Shown here: positions 7,268 through 64,000 of the stretch, one piece after another | Layout: every line of letters starts with the position of its first letter | How positions within the stretch are numbered: the stretch's first letter is position 1 | Assembly (NCBI GenBank): GCA_963666315.2 | Contig: CAXXHG010000043.1 | Span: forward strand, 608,001-672,000 | Length of the DNA: 64,000 bases | Direction of reading: 5' to 3' | DNA from: Candidatus Binatia bacterium | GTDB taxonomy: Bacteria > Desulfobacterota > Binatia > Bin18 | Position numbers and translations under genes: made by a program | The notes under the pieces: model-generated | The model's database searches: none | What the model saw: only the letters and a program-made list of their open reading frames with translations | Told to the model about the DNA's origin: nothing

Positions 7268-8245
7268 ATGCAACTGGGTATGATTGGTTTAGGCCGTATG
7301 GGAGGAAACATGGTGCGCCGGCTGATACGCGGCGGGCATGAGTGTGTTGTATATGCAAGAAACCCGGACAGTGTCAAACAGTTTGAACAGGAGGGCGCTA
7401 GCGGTGCCTCTTCGCTGGAAGACTTTGTGCAGAAACTGACTCCACCACGAGCCGCTTGGGTGATGATTCCTGCCGGCGCCGCGACGGATAAAACCGTGGG
7501 CGCACTTGCTGAGAAAATGGACGCGGGCGACATCATTATTGATGGTGGCAACTCCAACTTTAAAGATGACATCCGGCGTGCCAAAGAACTGCGCCCCAAA
7601 GGCATCCATTACGTTGACACTGGTACAAGCGGGGGGGTGTGGGGTATGGAGCGCGGATATTGCCTCATGATCGGCGGCGACAAAGAGTCGGTGCAACGGC
7701 TTGATCCCATTTTTCGGACGCTCGCACCCGGCGAAGGTGATATCCCCAAGACGCCTGGCCGTGAGAATATGAAGGGGACAGCCGAGGACGGCTATCTGCA
7801 CTGTGGTTCGGCTGGCGCCGGTCATTTTGTCAAAATGATCCATAACGGCATTGAGTATGGACTGATGCAAGCCTATGCCGAGGGCTTTGACATTCTGCGT
7901 GGTGCGAGTGCCGAAGGATTAGAATATCAGTACGGGTTGAATTTACCGGATATCGCGGAATTGTGGCGCCGGGGCAGCGTAGTCGGATCGTGGTTGCTAG
8001 ACTTGACGGCCATGGCGCTTGCCGAAAGTCCGGAGTTGGCAGACTTCTCTGGCGAGGTCCAAGATTCCGGTGAGGGCCGCTGGACGGTTGAAGCGGCGAT
8101 TGAGGAAGCTGTGCCGGCTGATGTCCTGTCTGCAGCGTTGTACACGCGTTTTCGCTCGCGACAGTCCCACACCTTTGCCGAAAAAGTCCTGTCGGCCATG
8201 CGGTTTAAGTTTGGCGGACACGTAGAGCCGCCTAAGGCGGGCTAG
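7268..8245 (+). CDS. gnd: 6-phosphogluconate dehydrogenase, decarboxylating (short YqeC-type)
   Basis: [43 protein letters not shown]. Confidence 0.95.
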
Positions 8246-8318
8246 CATCCTGCTCGTTCTGTCCTTGACGGATGCCTCCACTTCAACCGCTACGAGCAAA
8301 TAACGAGGATACCGCAGT

Positions 8319-9953
8319 ATGGATATGGAGACGGGAGTGAAAGCTAAAGTTCATGTGACCAGTAAGAGTAATGGAGATCCTGGCTCTGAACTTTTTCGAG
8401 CCAAAGATCCTTTTACCTTGGTCATTTTTGGCGCGTCCGGCGACTTGAGCCGCCGAAAATTGATCCCCGCCCTCTACCATTTGAACGCGACAGGCTATTT
8501 GCCTGACCGCTACGCGGTGGTCGGCTTCTCCCGGACAGAGATGACGGATGATGCCTACCGCGACACCATGCTCGGGGCGCTCCAGGAGCACGTTGACGCC
8601 GGCTCCAGCGCCGTGCAAGCGGATAATGCCTTAGTCCAATCGCTATACTACCATCCAGGCAACAACGACAATCTGGAATCCTTCACGGCACTCAAAGCGA
8701 AGCTCGACGCGATTGAGGCGGAACGCAACTTGCCCGGTAATCGCCTCTTTTATTTGTCGGTTGCGCCGGAGTTCTTTATCACCGTTATCCGGAATTTATG
8801 CGAAGCCGACCTCATCCGCGACAAAAACGCCGATACCTGGTCTCGCATCATCATCGAAAAACCGTTTGGTCATGATTTGGACAGCGCCCAGACGCTGAAT
8901 ACGGATGTCACGGCGTTACTGGATGAGAGCCAGATTTACCGTATTGACCACTACCTGGGCAAAGAGACGGTTCAGAATATTCTCAGCTTCCGCTTTGGGA
9001 ATTCGATCTTTGAGCCGCTGTTTGATCAAAAATATGTGGACAATGTCCAAATCTCTGTGGCCGAAACCCTGGGCATGGAAGGTCGACGAGGTGCATACTA
9101 CGATACCGCTGGCGCCATGCGGGACATGGTTCAGAACCATATGCTGCAGCTGCTGTGTTTAATTGCTATGGAGCCGCCGTCTGCGTTAGACTCACATTCG
9201 ATCCGAGATGAAAAAGTGAAAGTCTTGCGCGCCCTCATCCCGCTGTCCCGTAAAGAAGTGGCAGCTTCGACGGTCCGTGGTCAGTATGGGGTTGGAGAAA
9301 AAGAGGGTGAGGTGGTGAAGGGCTATCGCCAGGAAGAAGGTGTTGATCCGCACTCGACAACGGAAACCTATGTGGCGCTGCGGACCAAGATCGACAACTG
9401 GCGCTGGGCAGGCGTACCGTTCTTGCTGCGCTCCGGCAAACGGCTGCCTAAGCGTGTGTCCGAAATTGCGGTTGAGTTCAAACAACCGCCTCTGCACCTC
9501 TACCGCCAGCTCACCAACGATGACGATCTTGCACCGCCCAAGCCCAAGTCCAATGTGCTGGTGATGCGCATCCAGCCAGACGAGGGGATCAGCCTGGCCT
9601 TTGCGTGCAAGCGTCCGGGCATGCGGATTCAGCTGGAAGAAGTGAATATGAATTTTTTCTATCATACCTTTCAGCAGCGTTCGCCGGAAGCCTATGAGCG
9701 ACTGCTGCTGGATGCACTCCGCGGTGATGCCTCGCTCTTTACGCGCTCGGACGAGGTGGAGTATGCGTGGCGATTTATTTCGTCCATCCACGAAGGCTGG
9801 GCAAATTTGCCGCCGCCGAAATTTCCGAATTATTATCCTTTTACCGATGGCCCTGATGAAGCCAACCGGTTGCTGGAAGGCAGCCAGGCCGAATGGCGGT
9901 CCTTGAGTGGGAGTCGTTACTCTAAATCTCTCAACGGGATGAGCCCACCATGA
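8319..9953 (+). CDS. zwf: Glucose-6-phosphate 1-dehydrogenase
   Basis: GASGDL, IEKPFG, RIDHYLGKE, RDMVQNH, WRWAGVPF. Confidence 0.97.
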   Translation: MDMETGVKAKVHVTSKSNGDPGSELFRAKDPFTLVIFGASGDLSRRKLIPALYHLNATGYLPDRYAVVGFSRTEMTDDAYRDTMLGALQEHVDAGSSAVQADNALVQSLYYHPGNNDNLESFTALKAKLDAIEAERNLPGNRLFYLSVAPEFFITVIRNLCEADLIRDKNADTWSRIIIEKPFGHDLDSAQTLNTDVTALLDESQIYRIDHYLGKETVQNILSFRFGNSIFEPLFDQKYVDNVQISVAETLGMEGRRGAYYDTAGAMRDMVQNHMLQLLCLIAMEPPSALDSHSIRDEKVKVLRALIPLSRKEVAASTVRGQYGVGEKEGEVVKGYRQEEGVDPHSTTETYVALRTKIDNWRWAGVPFLLRSGKRLPKRVSEIAVEFKQPPLHLYRQLTNDDDLAPPKPKSNVLVMRIQPDEGISLAFACKRPGMRIQLEEVNMNFFYHTFQQRSPEAYERLLLDALRGDASLFTRSDEVEYAWRFISSIHEGWANLPPPKFPNYYPFTDGPDEANRLLEGSQAEWRSLSGSRYSKSLNGMSPP

Positions 9954-57281: not shown

Positions 57282-59000
57282 ATGAGTCGGACAATTGAAC
57301 GACGCCACTACGCTGAGATGTTTGGCCCGACGACGGGCGATCGGCTCCGGTTGGCTGACACCGAGTTGATCATCGAAATTGAGCAGGATCACACCGTATA
57401 CGGAGATGAGGTCAAGTTCGGTGGGGGCAAGGTGATACGCGACGGTATGGGCCAATCGCCTCTCCACACCTCTGCTCAGGGTGCTCCCGACCTCGTTATT
57501 ACGAACGCGGTTATTCTTGATCACTGGGGCATAGTCAAAGCCGATGTCGGGATCAAAGATGGGCGTATTTGCGGTATCGGCAAGGCCGGGAATCCATTGC
57601 TCATGGATGGAGTCTGCCCAGAACTCGTGATTGGGCCTGGCACAGAAATTCTCGCAGGGGAAGGCAAGATTCTTACTGCTGGCGGACTGGACGTGCATAT
57701 CCATTTCATCTGCCCCCAGCAGATTACCGAAGCACTCGCCTCGGGCGTGACGACGATGATAGGCGGTGGCACTGGTCCGGCCACCGGTACGAATGCGACG
57801 ACGTGCACACCCGGGGCGTGGAATATCGCCCGTATGTTGGAGTCGATTGAACACTATCCGCTCAATTTCGGCTTTCTGGCTAAGGGTAACGCCTCTCGAC
57901 CTGAGGCCCTCCATGAGCAGATCGAAGCCGGGGCGGTAGGCCTCAAGTTGCATGAAGACTGGGGCTCGACTCCTGCGGCTATTGATACCGCTCTCTCGGT
58001 GGCAGACGAACACGATGTCCAGGTCGCCATACACACCGACACGCTGAACGAGACCGGCTTTGTTGAGGATACAATCGCCGCGTTCAAAGGCCGTACCATA
58101 CATACCTACCATACTGAAGGAGCCGGCGGCGGGCATGCTCCCGATATTATCAAGGTGTGTGGATTGCCGAATGTACTACCGTCTTCAACAAATCCGACCC
58201 GGCCCTTTACCGTCAACACAATAGACGAGCATCTGGATATGCTTATGGTCTGCCACCACCTCGACCCAGACGTCCCTGAAGACGTGGCCTTTGCCGAGTC
58301 CCGCATTCGACCCGAGACGATAGCCGCTGAGGATGTCCTGCACGATATTGGGGCCTTTAGTATGATGGCATCTGACTCGCAAGCCATGGGTAGAGTCGGA
58401 GAAGTCATTATTCGGACGTGGCAGACCGCTCACAAAATGAGAGTTCAACGCGGCCGACTTTCAGAAGAAATCGGCCAGAATGATAATTTTCGGGTCAAAC
58501 GCTATGTGGCAAAATATACCATCAACCCGGCATTAGCCCATGGGATTGCGAGCCATGTCGGTTCGGTTGAGGCTGGCAAACTGGCAGATCTGGTGCTCTG
58601 GCAGCCCGCATTCTTTGGAGTCAAACCCGACATTGTTTTAAAAGGCGGTTTTATCGTCTGGGCAGCAATGGGTGATGCCAATGCGTCGATCCCGACCCCA
58701 CAGCCGGTATTTGGGCGGCCTATGTTTGGACACTTCGGGCGCGCACCGGCAACGCTTTCGTATAGTTTCGTCTCGCGTGCAGCCTATGACCGTGGGATTG
58801 CTCAGCAGCTGGGCCTGCAAAAACAGGTCATGCCTGTACAGGACTGTCGGAGCGTGCAGAAAAAGGACCTGGTGCATAATCAGCTAATGCCGCATATAGA
58901 GGTCAACCCGGAGACGTATGTGGTGAAGGCCGACGGCGAGGTGCTGACGTGCGAGCCTGCCCGAACGCTGCCCTTGGCCCAGCGCTATTTTCTTTTCTAA
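57282..59000 (+). CDS. ureC: Urease alpha subunit
   Basis: [45 protein letters not shown]. Confidence 0.98.
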
Positions 59001-59001
59001 A

Positions 59002-59040
59002 GAGCGGGACGAGGCTACGTCGACTGGCTCGTCCCTTCTC
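59002..59040. terminator. Hairpin after ureC
   Basis: GGGACGAG (59006-59013) pairs with CTCGTCCC (59028-59035). Confidence 0.5.
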
Positions 59041-59149
59041 GTCAGTCGATGAGACTCGCGTTCGAAATAAATTTTCGTACAGGTCTTGAGAGAGATCGCA
59101 AACAATATGCTGCTCAGGTCACCGCAAGGTTGACGCAGCGAGATTGAAA

Positions 59150-59335
59150 ACAAGAGCGGGGAAGAAAGAAGTCATGAGAGGTGAGGGTCAGCAGAACAGG
59201 GAAACACACAAGTAGCAGCGAGAAGGGAAGGCTAAGGGCGGCTGGAGGGACAGCCGCCCCAGGGGCGTCTAGAAGAGGGCGGAAGGAAGGCTAACCCTCT
59301 TCTAAAACTCAATAATGAGCATTGACTTACAAGTG
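59150..59335 (-). ncRNA. Candidate sigma-54-dependent small RNA
   Basis: Two perfect hairpins (10 and 9 bp) with C/U-rich loops, duplicated UUAGCCUUCC, no credible ORF, sigma-54 promoter directly upstream; ends approximate. Confidence 0.6.
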
Positions 59336-59343
59336 AGGTATAG

Positions 59344-59360
59344 AGCATGAAGTATGCCAG
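59344..59360 (-). promoter_or_regulatory. Sigma-54 promoter with no protein-coding gene downstream
   Basis: CTGGCATACTTCATGCT (TGGCA, GG-N10-GC). Confidence 0.7.
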
Positions 59361-59616
59361 GTTGAATGACTAGGAAATACTACGCTTTTTGTTGTTTTCT
59401 GCTTTGGGCTGCTTATCTTTTTAGCAATGGGCTCGTCCTGAACTGTTACTCTTCCAACAGGGGCAGGAGAGAGCTGTGTTGCTCTTTTGACTTTCTCTGT
59501 CTTGAGCGATTAATGAAGGCATGCAACTGAAACGCAATCTAACAGGCAGTAAGCCTGAACATGACACTGCGTTTCGGATATGACAGAAAAATACGACCAC
59601 GCTGACCAACGGCGGC

Positions 59617-61374
59617 ATGACTATGCTTCCTCACGGACATTATCTCAGTGAACAGCACTTCTTAATTTTCCTCGTGCAGATTCTCCTATTGCTGACATTG
59701 GCGCGTGGATTTGGAGAAGTCCTCCGGCATTGGGGGCACCCGCCCGTTGTCGGAGAAATTTTGGTGGGCTTGCTCCTCGGCCCGACCCTGCTCGGACGCA
59801 TAGCGCCTGAATTGTATCAGGCCCTTTTCCCACCCGATCCGATACAGCACACCATGCTGGCAACAGTGGCTTGGTTCGGCGTGCTTTTACTGCTCTTGGA
59901 GACCGGCCTTGAAGTCGATGTATCTGCGGCCTGGCAGCAGAGGGGCTCTGCGCTGCGCATCGGGATCATCGGCGTCATTATTCCCTTGGCGCTTGGCTTT
60001 CTTCTGTCTCTTTTCCTGCCCGACCGGTATCTCGCCGCGCCGGACCAACGGATTATATTTGCGTTGTTTTTAGGAACGACTATGGCCATTAGTGCCATGG
60101 TCATTATCGCGCGCGTATTGCATGACCTTGATCTCGTCAAGAGTGACCTCGGGCTCTTAACCCTGTGTGGTTATGCGGTCAACGATATTTTGGCGTGGGT
60201 CATTCTCAGCCTCGTGTTTGCCTCTGCGGCCAGTGCCACGCTGAGCGTCGGCGCTGTTGTCATATTGCTGAGTACTGCCGTCGGCTTTACGGCCTTTTGT
60301 CTGTCGTTCGGCTTGCGCATTGTTGACCGATCTCTGGCCGGACTGGTGAAACAGCTCCCTCAACAACCCGGCACAGTTCTCACTTTTGTGTGCTGCTTAG
60401 GACTCCTGTGCGGAGCAGTAACGCAGTGGATCGGATTGACCGCGCTGCTGGGATTTTTTCTGGCTGGGATTATGGCTGGAGACGCGAGCGCCTTATCTGA
60501 GCGAGTGCGGCAGATTCTGACCCAAATGGTCCACGCTATTTTTGTGCCGCTGTACTTTGCCAGCATTGCTCTACAGATAGACTTCCTGGAAAACTTTGAC
60601 ACCTTCCTGGTGCTTTTCGTGACTGTCGTTTCGATTGGGGGCAAGTATTTCGGGGCGTGGCTGGGAGCACAACGGGCTGGGCTATCTAACGTGGACTGCG
60701 TCTCAATCGGTATTGCCTTTACCCCAAGCGGAGTCACCGGCATTGTGGTGGCAGCGGTCGCGGTTGAGTATCAGATCATTACCATTCCGGTGTTTGTCTC
60801 CATCGTTTTCTCCGCGCTGATCTCTTCCCTTATTGTGGGCCCGTGGCTGGTCTGGTCGCTTCGGCGCAGACCGACCATAAATATCAGCGAGCTTTTTGTA
60901 CGCCGCGCCATGATTCCCAATCTGCAGGCAACGACCCGCCAGGCTGTGATCCAAGAACTGTGTCAGGAGTTGGCAGAACACGACCACGTGCCGGATTATG
61001 AGACTTTATCTGCGGCGGTCTGTGCGCGGGAGAAATTGATGGGAACCGGCGTCGGAAATGGTATTGCTGTGCCCCACGCTCGGCTGGAGGTACTCTCCAA
61101 ACCTATCATTACCTGTGGGCGCTCGCTGATTGGCGTGGACTGGGACGCGCCGGATGGTTTGCCGGTGCATCTCGTCTTTCTCTTGTTAACGCCCACCCAG
61201 GATGAGGGGGCGCAGCTCCAGATTCTCGCTGCGCTGGCGCGTACCATGGGGGAGGAAGCAGTGCGTAATGCACTCGTGCAAGCCCCGAATGAACACGAAC
61301 TGTGGCGGCTCTTGCAAGAGACGCTCAGGTCCCAAGACCTCGTCCTAAATGAACAAACGCATGGACGGGAATAA
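59617..61374 (+). CDS. CPA2 cation:proton antiporter fused to a PTS IIA (Ntr/Fru-type) domain
   Basis: VGEILVG.LLGP, GLE.D, AVND, LGFFLAG, FVPLYF; C-terminal RE..MGTGVG.GIAVPHAR, APDG.PV. Confidence 0.9.
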   Translation: MTMLPHGHYLSEQHFLIFLVQILLLLTLARGFGEVLRHWGHPPVVGEILVGLLLGPTLLGRIAPELYQALFPPDPIQHTMLATVAWFGVLLLLLETGLEVDVSAAWQQRGSALRIGIIGVIIPLALGFLLSLFLPDRYLAAPDQRIIFALFLGTTMAISAMVIIARVLHDLDLVKSDLGLLTLCGYAVNDILAWVILSLVFASAASATLSVGAVVILLSTAVGFTAFCLSFGLRIVDRSLAGLVKQLPQQPGTVLTFVCCLGLLCGAVTQWIGLTALLGFFLAGIMAGDASALSERVRQILTQMVHAIFVPLYFASIALQIDFLENFDTFLVLFVTVVSIGGKYFGAWLGAQRAGLSNVDCVSIGIAFTPSGVTGIVVAAVAVEYQIITIPVFVSIVFSALISSLIVGPWLVWSLRRRPTINISELFVRRAMIPNLQATTRQAVIQELCQELAEHDHVPDYETLSAAVCAREKLMGTGVGNGIAVPHARLEVLSKPIITCGRSLIGVDWDAPDGLPVHLVFLLLTPTQDEGAQLQILAALARTMGEEAVRNALVQAPNEHELWRLLQETLRSQDLVLNEQTHGRE

Positions 61375-61400: not shown

Positions 61401-62816
61401 CTAGAGCAACTTATAGCGTTTCATCCGTTCGCGCAGTACGTTCCGACTCACGCCGAGCAGGCGTGCGGCCTGGACTTGATTATAGCGGGAGAGTTCGAGT
61501 GCCTTGGAAACAACAAGCTGTTCGGACCGGGCGAGAACGTTGCCCACATGCTGAGAAAACAACTCTTCAAGGGTTGTGTTGAGAGCGATTTCGGTACTTG
61601 GGGAGGAGGCTTCGACTGCGGTTTTGTTGCTGATGTCATGCAAGGGCAGATCGTCTTCGGTAATCAAGGGCCCGCGTGTATTGAGTACGGCCTGCGCAAT
61701 AATATTCTCCAGCTCGCGCACATTCCCTGGCCATGTATAGGAGAGCAGTTTTTCACACGCTGTGGGAGAAAATCCTTGCGGTCCGAGCGTCTTAGCCTTC
61801 CCAGTCTTCCTATCGTTGGTGTGGAGCTGCAGCAGGTGGTTCGCGATGAGGAGGATGTCGTCGCCTCGCTCCCGTAAAGGGGGCAGATTGATACGAACGA
61901 CATCGAGACGATAATACAGGTCTTCGCGAAAACGCCCCTCCCGCATAAGTCTGTCGAGGGATTGGTTCGTTGCCGCGATAATCCGTATATCGATGTGTCG
62001 CGGCTGCCGAGCGCCTAACCGGGATATTTCCCGCTCTTGTAAGACCCGCAGCAGTTTGGACTGCAACAGCGGCGGCATGTCGCCGATTTCATCCAAGAAC
62101 AGTGTCCCGCCATGGGCCAGTTCGAATTTCCCCGGCCGCGATTCCACCGCACCGGAGAAGGCGCCCTTTTCGAATCCAAAGAGTTCACTTTCGAGCAGAG
62201 CGTCCGGAATCGCGGCACAGTTGATAGCCAGGAATGGGCCCTTACTCCGTTGGGAATAGGTATGCAGCGCACGTGCAACGAGCTCTTTGCCGGTGCCGCT
62301 CTCGCCTGTGATAAGCACGGTGATATCTCGGGCGGCACTCTTGCCGATAATCTTATACACCTCCTGCATGGCCCGGCTGTTGCCCAGCATAGGGACGGCA
62401 TCCGGCGGACGCGTCTCGGGGATGGCTTGAGGCAGCTGCTGGGGCATTTCTACGGAGGCGTGTTTTTGCAGAGTCTGAGCAATGAGTTGCTTGAGGGCCG
62501 CGACGTCAAACGGCTTCACGAGATAGTCGTCGGCGTCTAGCGCTGTCGAACGGATGGCTGTCTCGGCAGACACAAAGGCCGTCATCATGATAACGGGGAG
62601 GCTTGGTCGGCGCTGTTTGACTTCTTCCAGCGTATCCAGCCCGTCACGGTTCGGCATACGGACGTCCATGAGGATCAGGCGTAAGGCGGGATCGTCTATC
62701 TTGCTGAGGGCTTCGTCGCCTGAATAGGCAGACAGGATTTCGTATTCCTGGCCCAGAACACGCCGAAAGGAGTAATGGACGTTGCGTTCGTCATCAACAA
62801 CAAGAATTTTTTCCAT
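61401..62816 (-). CDS. Sigma-54-dependent response regulator (NtrC/AtoC-type)
   Basis: Receiver VVDD/MDVRMP/VKPF; GESGTGKE, ESELFG, GAFSGA, FLDEIGD, WPGNVREL; Fis-type HTH. Confidence 0.95.
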   Translation of the reverse strand: MEKILVVDDERNVHYSFRRVLGQEYEILSAYSGDEALSKIDDPALRLILMDVRMPNRDGLDTLEEVKQRRPSLPVIMMTAFVSAETAIRSTALDADDYLVKPFDVAALKQLIAQTLQKHASVEMPQQLPQAIPETRPPDAVPMLGNSRAMQEVYKIIGKSAARDITVLITGESGTGKELVARALHTYSQRSKGPFLAINCAAIPDALLESELFGFEKGAFSGAVESRPGKFELAHGGTLFLDEIGDMPPLLQSKLLRVLQEREISRLGARQPRHIDIRIIAATNQSLDRLMREGRFREDLYYRLDVVRINLPPLRERGDDILLIANHLLQLHTNDRKTGKAKTLGPQGFSPTACEKLLSYTWPGNVRELENIIAQAVLNTRGPLITEDDLPLHDISNKTAVEASSPSTEIALNTTLEELFSQHVGNVLARSEQLVVSKALELSRYNQVQAARLLGVSRNVLRERMKRYKLL

Positions 62817-62820
62817 AGTG

Positions 62821-64000
62821 TTATAGTGGCAGCCGAATGACGACCGTTGTGCCTTGCCCCGGTTTGGAGAAGAGCCGGAGTCGGCCGTTGTGTCCTTCAA
62901 TGATACGTTGCGATATGGACAGCCCGAGACCTGTACCGCCTTCTTTGGTAGTAAAAAATGGATCAAAAAGCTGGGACCGAACCAGGGGTGAGATGCCTTC
63001 TCCCTCGTCGGCTATGGTAACCAGGAAGCTGCCACCACTAGTCGTGATCCGGACCGTGAGTGTTCCCCCTCGCGCCATCGCCTGGAGGGCGTTGAGCAAG
63101 AGGTTGAGGAAGACTTGTTTGATCTGGGCACCGTCCACCCAGGCCAAAGGCAGCTCCTGCGCCCACTCTGTATAGATCAAGATCTCGCGAATACGCGCTT
63201 CCGGTCCGATCAACAGCAAGGTCTCCTGCATGATTTCTTCGAGCCGTTCACGTTGAAAATGAGGCGGGCGGGGACGGGCGAATTCCAGAAACTGCTCAAG
63301 CAAGAGCTTCATGCGCTGTAACTCGTCCTGGACAACACTGAGATCATCGGCCAACGCATTATCGAGCGGACTCTCAGATGTTCTGTCCTGCGCCATGGCA
63401 TAAATGAGCATGCTGACCGTATTCAACGGGTTACGGAGTTCGTGGGCCAGGCCGGCTGAGAGTTTGCCCAGGGCTGCCAATTTTTCGGACTGACGCAGCT
63501 GTTCCCTAGACTGCAGTTCTTCCCGGTGCAAGGTCGCATTCTCAATGGCGATGGCGGATTGGCTGGCAAGGAGGGTGAGTAGGCGGATATCATTCTCCTC
63601 AAAGCAGCGTGGCTCAGTCGTGTATACATTCAGCACGCCGATAATATCGGTCTTAGTCCGGAGCGGAACGGAAAGCAGTGAGCACAATCCCTCACGCCGG
63701 GCTAAGTCGGCAACGCGGTAGCGCGTTTCTTTGCGGACATCGGGAGTGTAGAGCGGCCTCCCGGTTTTGATGACTTCGCCGGTCAGGCTAGTTGCCACCT
63801 CGCGGGCCGGCTGGGCAAGATATTTCTCGCTAGCGCCGTGAGTGGCCACAGGACGTAAGGTCCCTTCTTCAGGATCAAGCAGGAGGATAGAGGATACGCG
63901 CGCGGCCATGAGGCGACAGGCATGAGCGACTATGCGCTGCAAAACTTCTTCAAGCTGCAGCGTTGACGAGATTTCCGCACCAACGGTGAACAGAGCTTCG
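62821..64000 (-). CDS. GAF-domain sensor histidine kinase (5' end outside window)
   Basis: GAF domain; LAHELRNPL; QVFLNL..NA; DEGEG; PFFTTK..GTGLGL. Confidence 0.93.
   Translation of the reverse strand, partial: EALFTVGAEISSTLQLEEVLQRIVAHACRLMAARVSSILLLDPEEGTLRPVATHGASEKYLAQPAREVATSLTGEVIKTGRPLYTPDVRKETRYRVADLARREGLCSLLSVPLRTKTDIIGVLNVYTTEPRCFEENDIRLLTLLASQSAIAIENATLHREELQSREQLRQSEKLAALGKLSAGLAHELRNPLNTVSMLIYAMAQDRTSESPLDNALADDLSVVQDELQRMKLLLEQFLEFARPRPPHFQRERLEEIMQETLLLIGPEARIREILIYTEWAQELPLAWVDGAQIKQVFLNLLLNALQAMARGGTLTVRITTSGGSFLVTIADEGEGISPLVRSQLFDPFFTTKEGGTGLGLSISQRIIEGHNGRLRLFSKPGQGTTVVIRLPL

Follow-up and report, generated by a model that had tools for sequence, protein, structure and literature searches.

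The 64,000-nt window that we analyzed (positions 608,001 to 672,000 of contig CAXXHG010000043.1, from a Candidatus Binatia bacterium) contains a short RNA element just past the end of its urease operon. We interpret positions 59333 to about 59217 of the minus strand, with moderate confidence, as a free-standing gene for a regulatory small RNA (sRNA) of about 117 nt. Judging from the sequence, this sRNA would be driven by sigma-54 and would pair with mRNAs through anti-Shine-Dalgarno loops, without Hfq. A preliminary description of this DNA had proposed an unannotated sRNA on the minus strand with a sigma-54 promoter, and conservation in relatives, covariation, and strand-specific G-U pairs all point the same way. 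(We refer to the genome that contains the window as G000 and to its relatives as G001-G043. The G000 assembly is 4.99 Mb, with 54% G+C, and is 92% complete; the window lies on its contig C43. Coordinates are those of the window unless a contig is named.)

Features of the predicted RNA

The RNA unit has the following parts:

59344..59359, minus strand: sigma-54-type -24/-12 promoter, TGGCATACTTCATGCT (TGGCAT-N5-ATGCT), with GG at 59358-59357 and GC at 59346-59345, at the canonical spacing

59217..59333, minus strand: predicted sRNA of about 117 nt, with the 5' end placed by its spacing from the promoter and the 3' end bounded by comparative data

59307..59320, minus strand: hairpin 0, GCUC / GAGU, 4 bp, predicted by RNAalifold

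59270..59304, minus strand: hairpin A, stem UAGAAGAGGG / CCCUCUUCUA (arms 59304-59295 and 59279-59270), with the 15-nt loop UUAGCCUUCCUUCCG

59236..59260, minus strand: hairpin B, G+C-rich stem GGGGCGGCUG / CAGCCGCCC (arms 59260-59251 and 59244-59236), with the 6-nt loop UCCCUC

59217..59235, minus strand: C/U-rich 3' tail, UUAGCCUUCCCUUCUCGCU, with a second UUAGCCUUCC at 59235-59226

The promoter (CTGGCATACTTCATGCT at 59360-59344 of the minus strand), hairpins A and B, and the second UUAGCCUUCC all lie where the preliminary description had placed them. It had also seen no credible open reading frame (ORF) here. We found none of at least 40 amino acids on the minus strand of 59154-59420, and there is no conserved ORF within the RNA unit. 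A 130-nt RNA from the minus strand folds at -46.8 kcal/mol (z = -4.74), and none of 200 shuffled sequences folded as well.

Covariation of the stems and conservation of the loops

We built two covariance models. R1 was built from a MAFFT alignment of 17 sequences from the same genus; R2 is broader, with divergent members added. The covariance model match in G000 spans window positions 59205-59338 (G000:C43:667205-667338). When RNAalifold was run on the MAFFT alignment, with no prior structure given, it returned the same three helices. In a genus alignment that was fitted to the model (A2), 97.1% of cells are paired and 15 of the 24 pairs changed on both sides; none of 500 shuffles scored as high, and slid controls reached 50-61%. 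In the cross-genus alignment (A3), paired cells make up 95.6%, and two-sided changes are seen in 22 of the 24 pairs; again none of 500 shuffles scored as high, with slid controls at 51-60%. A caveat is that fitting to the model biases A2 and A3 towards structure, but the independent MAFFT/RNAalifold run guards against this.

Each helix contributes to the covariation. For hairpin A, 6 of 9 pairs changed on both sides within the genus and all 9 did so across genera. For hairpin B, the counts are 7 of 11 and 9 of 11. Hairpin 0 is the weakest of the three helices (88% of cells paired); all 4 of its pairs changed on both sides across genera.

The loops behave differently. Loop A has a CCUUCC or CCCUCC core in every row, and the core is invariant in 16 of the 17 genus sequences. 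(In other genera, loop A is UUCCCUCCUU, of the form U(U/C)CCCUCCUU.) Loop B is UCCCUC in all 17 genus sequences and again in the other genera. Stems that drift around constant loops suggest that the loops are the working (recognition) surfaces. Loop A is the candidate main seed, and hairpin B is probably the terminator hairpin with a second C-rich loop.

The tail is another matter. In relatives, this region is a C-rich run followed by a U run, and the sequence itself is unconserved. The preliminary description had spoken of a duplicated seed, but the second UUAGCCUUCC is restricted to G000 and is not shared by its two closest relatives. The 3' bound was set from G022, where a deletion junction lies just before GCTACTTAC, which aligns with 59216-59210 of the window. 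The RNA would thus end near 59217, and the long tail to 59150 that had been described as part of it falls outside the conserved unit.

The base pairs also identify the strand. In 14 of the 17 sequences, hairpin A is closed by a U-G pair, and the structure has further G-U pairs. Read on the plus strand, such pairs turn into A-C mismatches, so the minus strand is the RNA strand. This bears on another possibility that the preliminary description had raised, which is that a functional plus-strand transcript with GGA-rich loops serves as a CsrA/RsmA sponge. The plus-strand loops are GGAAGGAAGG and GAGGGA, and the plus strand does fold better than shuffled sequences (z = -2.50; 4 of 200 shuffles did as well). 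But besides the mismatches, the conserved promoter faces the opposite way, and we found CsrA (PF02599) in none of the 28 genus genomes, 20 of which are at least 90% complete. (The control genomes were positive.) We consider such a sponge extremely improbable. CsrB and RsmZ resemble our RNA in having multiple hairpin loops with a repeated short motif; the difference is that GGA occurs here only on the non-transcribed strand.

The promoter and its upstream sites

To describe the surroundings of the RNA, we use a synteny sample of 23 genus loci (18 kb around the match in 20 relatives, plus G000, G020, and G024) and 7 loci from other genera, with 2.0-3.1 kb around each. The promoter is kept at the right distance in 21 of 21 genus loci and in 7 of 7 loci from other genera, as TGGCAY-N6/7-TGC. 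(The promoters in the other genera are TGGCAY-N6-CTGC.) Its GG and GC are invariant in the MAFFT alignment. The preliminary description had staked its proposal on the conservation or covariation of stems and promoter in relatives; the promoter is conserved, and the stems covary. The gene for sigma-54 (rpoN) is present in the genome (G000:C30), where it adjoins a PtsN-like gene.

Three more features lie upstream of the promoter:

59443..59460, minus strand: distal palindrome, candidate site for an enhancer-binding protein, seen as a conserved block in an alignment of 21 upstream regions

59410..59426, minus strand: proximal palindrome, TGC-N11-GCA (TGCTAAAAAGATAAGCA), candidate site for an enhancer-binding protein, ending 50 nt before TGGCA

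59385..59399, minus strand: A-rich tract in the gap between the palindromes and the promoter, possibly a bend or an IHF-type site

The palindromes are about 65-115 bp upstream of the -24 GG across the 21 genus loci. The distal palindrome is CTGTTG-N8-AACAG in G000 and CTGTTG-N6-CAGCAG in most relatives, and it is still present in G022 and G043, both of which are without the RNA. In the proximal palindrome, TGC and GCA keep their spacing in the rows that we read (the window, the main clade, and the divergent G016); G013 has GCA, then C. We take its shape to be that of an NtrC-family site. Relatives in the genus have A/T tracts at the equivalent position (GAAAAATA), as do other genera (AAAAACTNCTGAATTT); in the latter, a CAGCAACAG-type block likewise lies in a similar upstream place. 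Palindromes, an A-rich tract, and a -24/-12 element are the usual layout of activator-dependent sigma-54 promoters.

As a separate observation, four near-identical sigma-54-type promoters (GCGGKTGGCACGGKTYGTGCT...) occur elsewhere in G000, at C19:43412, C37:27885, C46:107863, and C32:11864, and form a repeated promoter family.

Distribution and copies

By blastn, the RNA stretch is single-copy in G000. It has matches in 16 of 24 genus genomes sampled, and these run from 59236, which is the last base of hairpin B, to 59369-59427, which is at least about 17 nt past the promoter. (One match covers 59236-59302 only.) None of 16 genomes from other families matched by blastn. With R1, exactly one match each was found in 23 of the 28 genus genomes. 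We also ran R1 on 151 genomes of the class, 19 of them in family f1; the 132 genomes outside the family gave just two marginal matches (E = 0.005-0.009, and E-values of home-built covariance models are rough). R2 was run on 55 family genomes from 10 genera and has matches in 37 genomes and 8 genera.

Rfam (4227 families) gave no match at E up to 10 for positions 58000-60500 of the window, and nine homologous loci gave only noise that was far below threshold. The preliminary description had allowed that the element could be a terminator or a repetitive extragenic palindrome (REP) of a family repeated across the genome. Against this, there is one blastn copy in G000, one strong model match per genome, and no co-oriented gene that ends upstream. 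In the literature (supplementary files were outside the scope of the search), we found no description of this RNA.

In four genomes (G018, G042, G011, and G001), the RNA has a tandem paralog close to the start of the antiporter gene, some 520-650 nt upstream of the main copy (8236-8360 of the oriented G018 locus). The paralog comes with a separate TGGCATGCTTTATGCT promoter and contains a UUUUCCCUCCUUUA loop as well as a G+C hairpin. There are also weaker R2 matches at G000:C43:368570-368719 (minus strand, 25.9 bits), G000:C37:13184-13292 (22.1 bits), and G024:C17:39469-39602 (28.9 bits). The first of these has a hairpin with a CCCCUCC loop and then a G+C-rich hairpin, with TGAC in place of TGGC at -24. 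It may be a diverged paralog.

Genomic neighborhood

The neighbors of the RNA in the window are:

57282-59000, plus strand: ureC, convergent with the RNA, ending about 215 nt downstream of hairpin B

59095..59216, minus strand: pyrimidine-rich DNA that, by eye, resembles a decayed remnant of a porin promoter

59617..61374, plus strand: Na+/H+ exchanger fused to a PTS EIIA (PtsN-like) domain, divergent from the RNA (Pfam PF00999 and PF00359)

61401..62966, minus strand: NtrC-family sigma-54 activator with receiver, AAA+, and HTH_8 domains (Pfam), a candidate regulator of the RNA

62821..64000, minus strand: GAF-domain histidine kinase (GAF, HisKA, and HATPase_c; Pfam), which runs off the window and is presumably the partner of the activator

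The common order in the 20 relatives is kinase, activator, antiporter (on the opposite strand), RNA, porin, phosphofructokinase, and a circularly permuted ATP-grasp protein. (The porin is a 508-aa outer-membrane protein of the Alginate_exp family.) The antiporter is adjacent to the RNA in all 23 genus loci and the porin in 20 of 23. The activator is co-oriented upstream in 16 of the 20 relatives as well as in G000, G020, and G024. It scores below every NCBIfam equivalog cut-off; the best is NtrC, with 450 bits vs. a cut-off of 559. In a scan of genome contigs, it gave only relatives with at most 47% identity, from many phyla.

The exceptions for the porin are G000, G020, and G024, in which the convergent urease operon occupies its place. 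In G020, a porin fragment remains (residues 27-166, 58% identity, with an internal TAG), and a porin query has no match anywhere in G000 (92% complete) or in G024. By these comparisons, the urease operon came in secondarily and took the place of the porin gene in this small clade. The suggested connection of the RNA with urea genes finds no support in this history. The pyrimidine-rich DNA at about 59215-59150, outside the conserved unit, would be the decayed promoter region of the neighboring porin: it has GCTACTT at 59216-59210, and CTGAGCAGCATATTGTTTGC at 59117-59098 where relatives carry TTGGCTCCAGCATTGCTTAG. The 59095-59216 stretch has no blastn match in G020 or G024, and the DNA just downstream of the RNA cannot be aligned among the three genomes.

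Separate gene or part of another transcript

We then considered whether the RNA is a gene of its own. Natural loss and retention suggest that it is. First, the RNA is missing from two complete genomes, G022 and G043, that still have the porin and its promoter, the antiporter, and the upstream palindromes. A clean deletion in G022 (near 2990 of its locus) removes the RNA unit from the -24 element up to GCTACTTAC; in G043 (2730-2950 of its locus), unrelated DNA has taken the place of the RNA unit.

Second, the three porin-less genomes kept the RNA. Its core (59236-59320) differs from that of G000 at 5 of 85 positions in G020 and at 8 of 85 in G024. The four-fold sites of the antiporter, ureC, and the activator differ by 0.19-0.21, so the core has changed less than these (binomial P = 1.6e-4 and 0.013). 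Retention without the porin in three genomes, and loss with the porin kept in two, indicate a separate gene rather than a leader.

Several results weigh against a free-standing, base-pairing sRNA. The promoter pattern TGGCAY-N5-NTGCW has 35 matches in the genome vs. about 40 expected from base composition; as the pattern alone is at chance frequency, the comparative evidence carries the case. Hairpin B is without a canonical U tract, and a terminator scan did not flag it. A co-oriented gene follows the RNA in 20 of the 23 genus loci. The tandem paralog ends about 30 nt before a conserved small ORF (about 120 aa), with no promoter seen between them, and some copies of the RNA may double as leaders. 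As to the regulator, the preliminary description had named the adjacent kinase and enhancer-binding protein. Its co-oriented upstream position in 19 of the 23 genus loci and the conserved palindromes agree with that, but the activator is not adjacent in the other 4, and it was not found within the 2.0-3.1 kb around the 7 loci from other genera. The targets are the last difficulty. The preliminary description had suggested a scan near ribosome-binding sites, and no target rose above background. GGAAGGAAGG, which is exactly complementary to the loop A core, is found about 10 times per genome across the 28 genomes, which is what chance would give. (The word is identical when reversed, which leaves the control for this count uninformative.) Pairing with loop A, loop B, and the tail was also ranked over about 26,800 candidate start regions, taken from crude ORF calls; none stood out, and the start region of the porin ranked at only 0.11-0.17 for loop pairing.

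Some of these points would be explained if the RNA were a cis-acting 5' leader of the downstream gene, with attenuation or translational control and with C-rich loops that sequester the gene's own ribosome-binding site. In the 20 genus relatives, the co-oriented downstream gene is the porin, whose ribosome-binding site is purine-rich (GAGGAGGAGAGA). The paralog that runs up to a small ORF fits as well, and a sigma-54-driven small-protein gene elsewhere in G000 has a CCUCC-containing 5' untranslated region (UTR). But about 70 nt ahead of its ATG, the porin has a conserved sigma-54-type promoter of its own (TTGGCTCCAGCATTGC), and the spacer from hairpin B to the porin ATG is variable (138-317 nt) and contains an insertion that is unconserved. 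The order is the reverse in three loci from other genera, where the porin comes before the RNA. The pairing rank of the porin start region is unremarkable. Constraint on the RNA persists in three porin-less genomes, and the RNA is gone from two that keep the porin and its promoter. A second sigma-54 promoter in between, separability in five genomes, a reversed order in three other genera, and no match to a cis-regulatory Rfam family are not what one would expect of a cis-leader. We regard a leader as unlikely.

Public transcriptomes are evidence in neither direction. Four runs labeled as RNA have 4-5 of 80 words each from this region, and all are metatranscriptomes at the contig level. Three of them cover only 58900-59013, at the end of ureC. 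The fourth, which is labeled "probably DNA," has one 151-nt contig over 59220-59335 that extends past hairpin B. This contig, of uncertain type, could fit a different idea: the promoter might mainly drive antisense transcription into the convergent urease operon, in G000 and perhaps its two closest relatives, with the hairpins as a relic. The end of ureC is about 215 nt away on the opposite strand, and hairpin B is without a canonical U tract. However, the RNA long predates the urease neighborhood, and since the urease insertion, divergence of the hairpins and loops has been two- to threefold lower than that of four-fold sites, which is unlike a relic. An antisense role of this kind seems very unlikely.

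Candidate targets

Returning to a free-standing sRNA, we looked at individual genes in the target scans. The start regions of the antiporter, pfk, and the activator are also unremarkable for loop pairing. There are two weak leads, both found after the fact, and these could be due to chance. One is a small-protein gene at G000:C43:107843 whose 5' UTR has AGGAAGGCUAA, an 11-nt complement to loop A. The site is kept in G024; the ortholog in G018 offers CGGAAGGGAG at its ribosome-binding site instead. At G000:C43:107755-107845, a sigma-54-type promoter, TGGCACACTTTCTGCT, drives this gene, which encodes a 145-aa protein with about 7 paralogs in the genome; the 5' UTR also has an internal UCCUCCUU. 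The other lead is a gene for an HtrA-like protease (G000:C8:15761), which has, at its ribosome-binding site, GGAAGGAAGG in G004 and G041 or GGGAAGGGAAGGAA in G000.

Two candidates were set aside. An SDR gene has a site that is conserved in G018, G001, and G004 and is not kept in G000. In the mRNA of the activator, GGAAGGCTAA (the complement of UUAGCCUUCC) occurs at 61801-61792 of the minus strand, in an indel-rich linker; it is absent from 11 relatives and is probably a chance match. We also considered whether the small ORF after the tandem paralog is homologous to the small protein at C43:107843, which BLASTP does not support (E = 2.3).

Proposed mechanism

If the RNA is a free-standing sRNA, we propose that it works as follows. 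Sigma-54 RNA polymerase would start from the -24/-12 promoter at 59359-59344, once an NtrC-type enhancer-binding protein has bound the palindromes 65-115 bp upstream of the -24 GG. The most likely activator would be the product of 61401-62966, acting with its GAF kinase. The RNA would then fold into three hairpins and display loop A (with its CCUUCCUUCC core) and loop B (UCCCUC). Both loops resemble an anti-Shine-Dalgarno sequence and could, without help from Hfq, block translation by pairing with mRNAs at their purine-rich ribosome-binding sites. In the ancestral setting, the RNA would have been just upstream of a porin with its own sigma-54 promoter, probably with upstream sites in common, so that the two were switched on together.

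We favor pairing with ribosome-binding sites because the loops are anti-Shine-Dalgarno-like and because ribosome-binding sites in G000 are purine-rich (compare that of the porin). Like CsrA, Hfq was found in none of the 28 genus genomes (control genomes were positive). As neither protein was found, the RNA must act without them.

Even if this is a real sigma-54-dependent sRNA, it could titrate a protein that binds C/U-rich loops, or act by another route than ribosome-binding-site pairing. Loop B has just 6 nt and sits in the presumed terminator hairpin, and yet it is invariant, which is unusual for a pairing seed. That no mRNA target rises above background and that there is no Hfq to assist pairing would fit too. 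But we have no candidate for such a protein, and a failure to rank targets is expected when the seeds match generic ribosome-binding sites. Similar C/U-rich loops are documented as anti-Shine-Dalgarno seeds in Hfq-independent sRNAs, such as NfeR1 as presented in PMC10746234. Titration or another such route strikes us as rather improbable.

A broader proposal, which is speculative and probably wrong as it stands, is that the RNA is the hub of an envelope/transport switch not seen before. Through upstream sites common to both, a single GAF-kinase/NtrC-type pair would turn on the Alginate_exp porin and an anti-Shine-Dalgarno mimic that silences mRNAs with strong purine-rich sites, or the RNA would be a far-diverged relative of Pxr from myxobacteria. 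If the former were true, the switch would belong to a family without Hfq and CsrA and with AMO/pMMO genes, and the silenced mRNAs might be those of other envelope proteins or of the HtrA-like protease. A relationship to Pxr would extend the "gatekeeper" RNA design beyond the myxobacteria.

Comparison with known small RNAs

We classify the RNA as a new sRNA family of a known kind (Pxr-like or NfeR1-like), since it has no Rfam match and its loop motif is unlike that of the NfeR1 group. It represents a new family, not a new principle: sigma-54-dependent sRNAs with C-rich seeds are already familiar from Pxr, Qrr, and NfeR1. To our knowledge, sRNAs described outside of the model phyla are very few, and those from lineages that have neither Hfq nor CsrA are even fewer; the comparative evidence for this one is unusually clean.

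By its design, Pxr appears to be the nearest known RNA. (We compared Pxr by its description.) In the accounts available (PMC5568312, PMC5684412), Pxr has about 108 nt, three predicted stem-loops, an apparent sigma-54 promoter, and an adjacent sigma-54 response regulator. Cystobacter has tandem Pxr paralogs, each with its own sigma-54 promoter; the host is without Hfq; and the targets are given as unknown (PMC5568312, PMC5684412). Our RNA similarly has about 117 nt, three hairpins, a sigma-54 promoter, an NtrC-type regulator nearby, tandem paralogs in four genomes, and no Hfq found. The comparison to Pxr in the preliminary description was therefore apt as regards architecture, going by what PMC5568312 describes. 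Also, a Pyr_redox_2 flavoprotein is encoded downstream of the RNA in 3 of the 7 loci from other genera, which recalls the NADH dehydrogenase gene described next to pxr. In contrast to Pxr, the conserved neighbors here are the antiporter and the porin, and the host is of a lineage with 54% G+C and two AMO/pMMO subunit A genes. We view the likeness as one of design and not as proof of common descent.

In the logic of the seeds, the nearest known RNAs seem to be NfeR1/alpha-r14 and cuckoo/CcsR from alpha-proteobacteria. (The cuckoo and CcsR RNAs are the subject of PMC4615179 and PMC8034643.) The pattern of conserved loops on stems that are free to covary is shared with our RNA. NfeR1 is described as Hfq-independent, at about 123 nt, and as tied to an NtrBC circuit (PMC10746234). 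Unlike our RNA, the NfeR1/alpha-r14/cuckoo RNAs are reported to use a sigma-70 promoter and to repeat CCUCCUCCC in each of their loops. Our RNA, from a different lineage, has a promoter of the sigma-54 type, with CCUUCCUUCC or CCCUCC in loop A and UCCCUC in loop B.

The Qrr RNAs of Vibrio depend on Hfq. Qrr1-5 are paralogous sRNAs with sigma-54 promoters under an NtrC-type response regulator, LuxO (10.1101/2021.07.01.450815, PMC3730234). Our RNA differs from these in its seeds, in the genus genomes without Hfq, and in having no match in Rfam.

The natural knock-outs (G022 and G043) and the orphans that retain the RNA without the porin (G000, G020, and G024) make this locus a ready test case for Hfq-independent anti-Shine-Dalgarno regulation under sigma-54. 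The RNA also gives a handle on the signal that is sensed by the adjacent GAF kinase.

The host and other observations

G000 encodes two AMO/pMMO subunit A proteins, at G000:C43:125230-125898 (209.6 bits) and G000:C24:36554-37210 (189.7 bits), so the host is probably an oxidizer of ammonia, methane, or alkanes. As the host has both urease and AMO/pMMO, the circuit may bear on how such oxidizers adjust their envelope and transport. (A PSD1 profile had no match in any genome searched, controls included.)

Two observations concern the region around the end of ureC. Just past ureC, at 59004-59036 of the plus strand, there is a hairpin, GGGACGAGCC / GGCTCGTCCC, followed by TTCTCGTC, which the terminator scan did not flag. 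Terminators in G000 may commonly be without clean U tracts. In G024, the gap between the RNA and ureC has an inserted small gene at the place where G020 has its porin fragment, and by eye, the product looks like an antidote-type protein with a helix-turn-helix.

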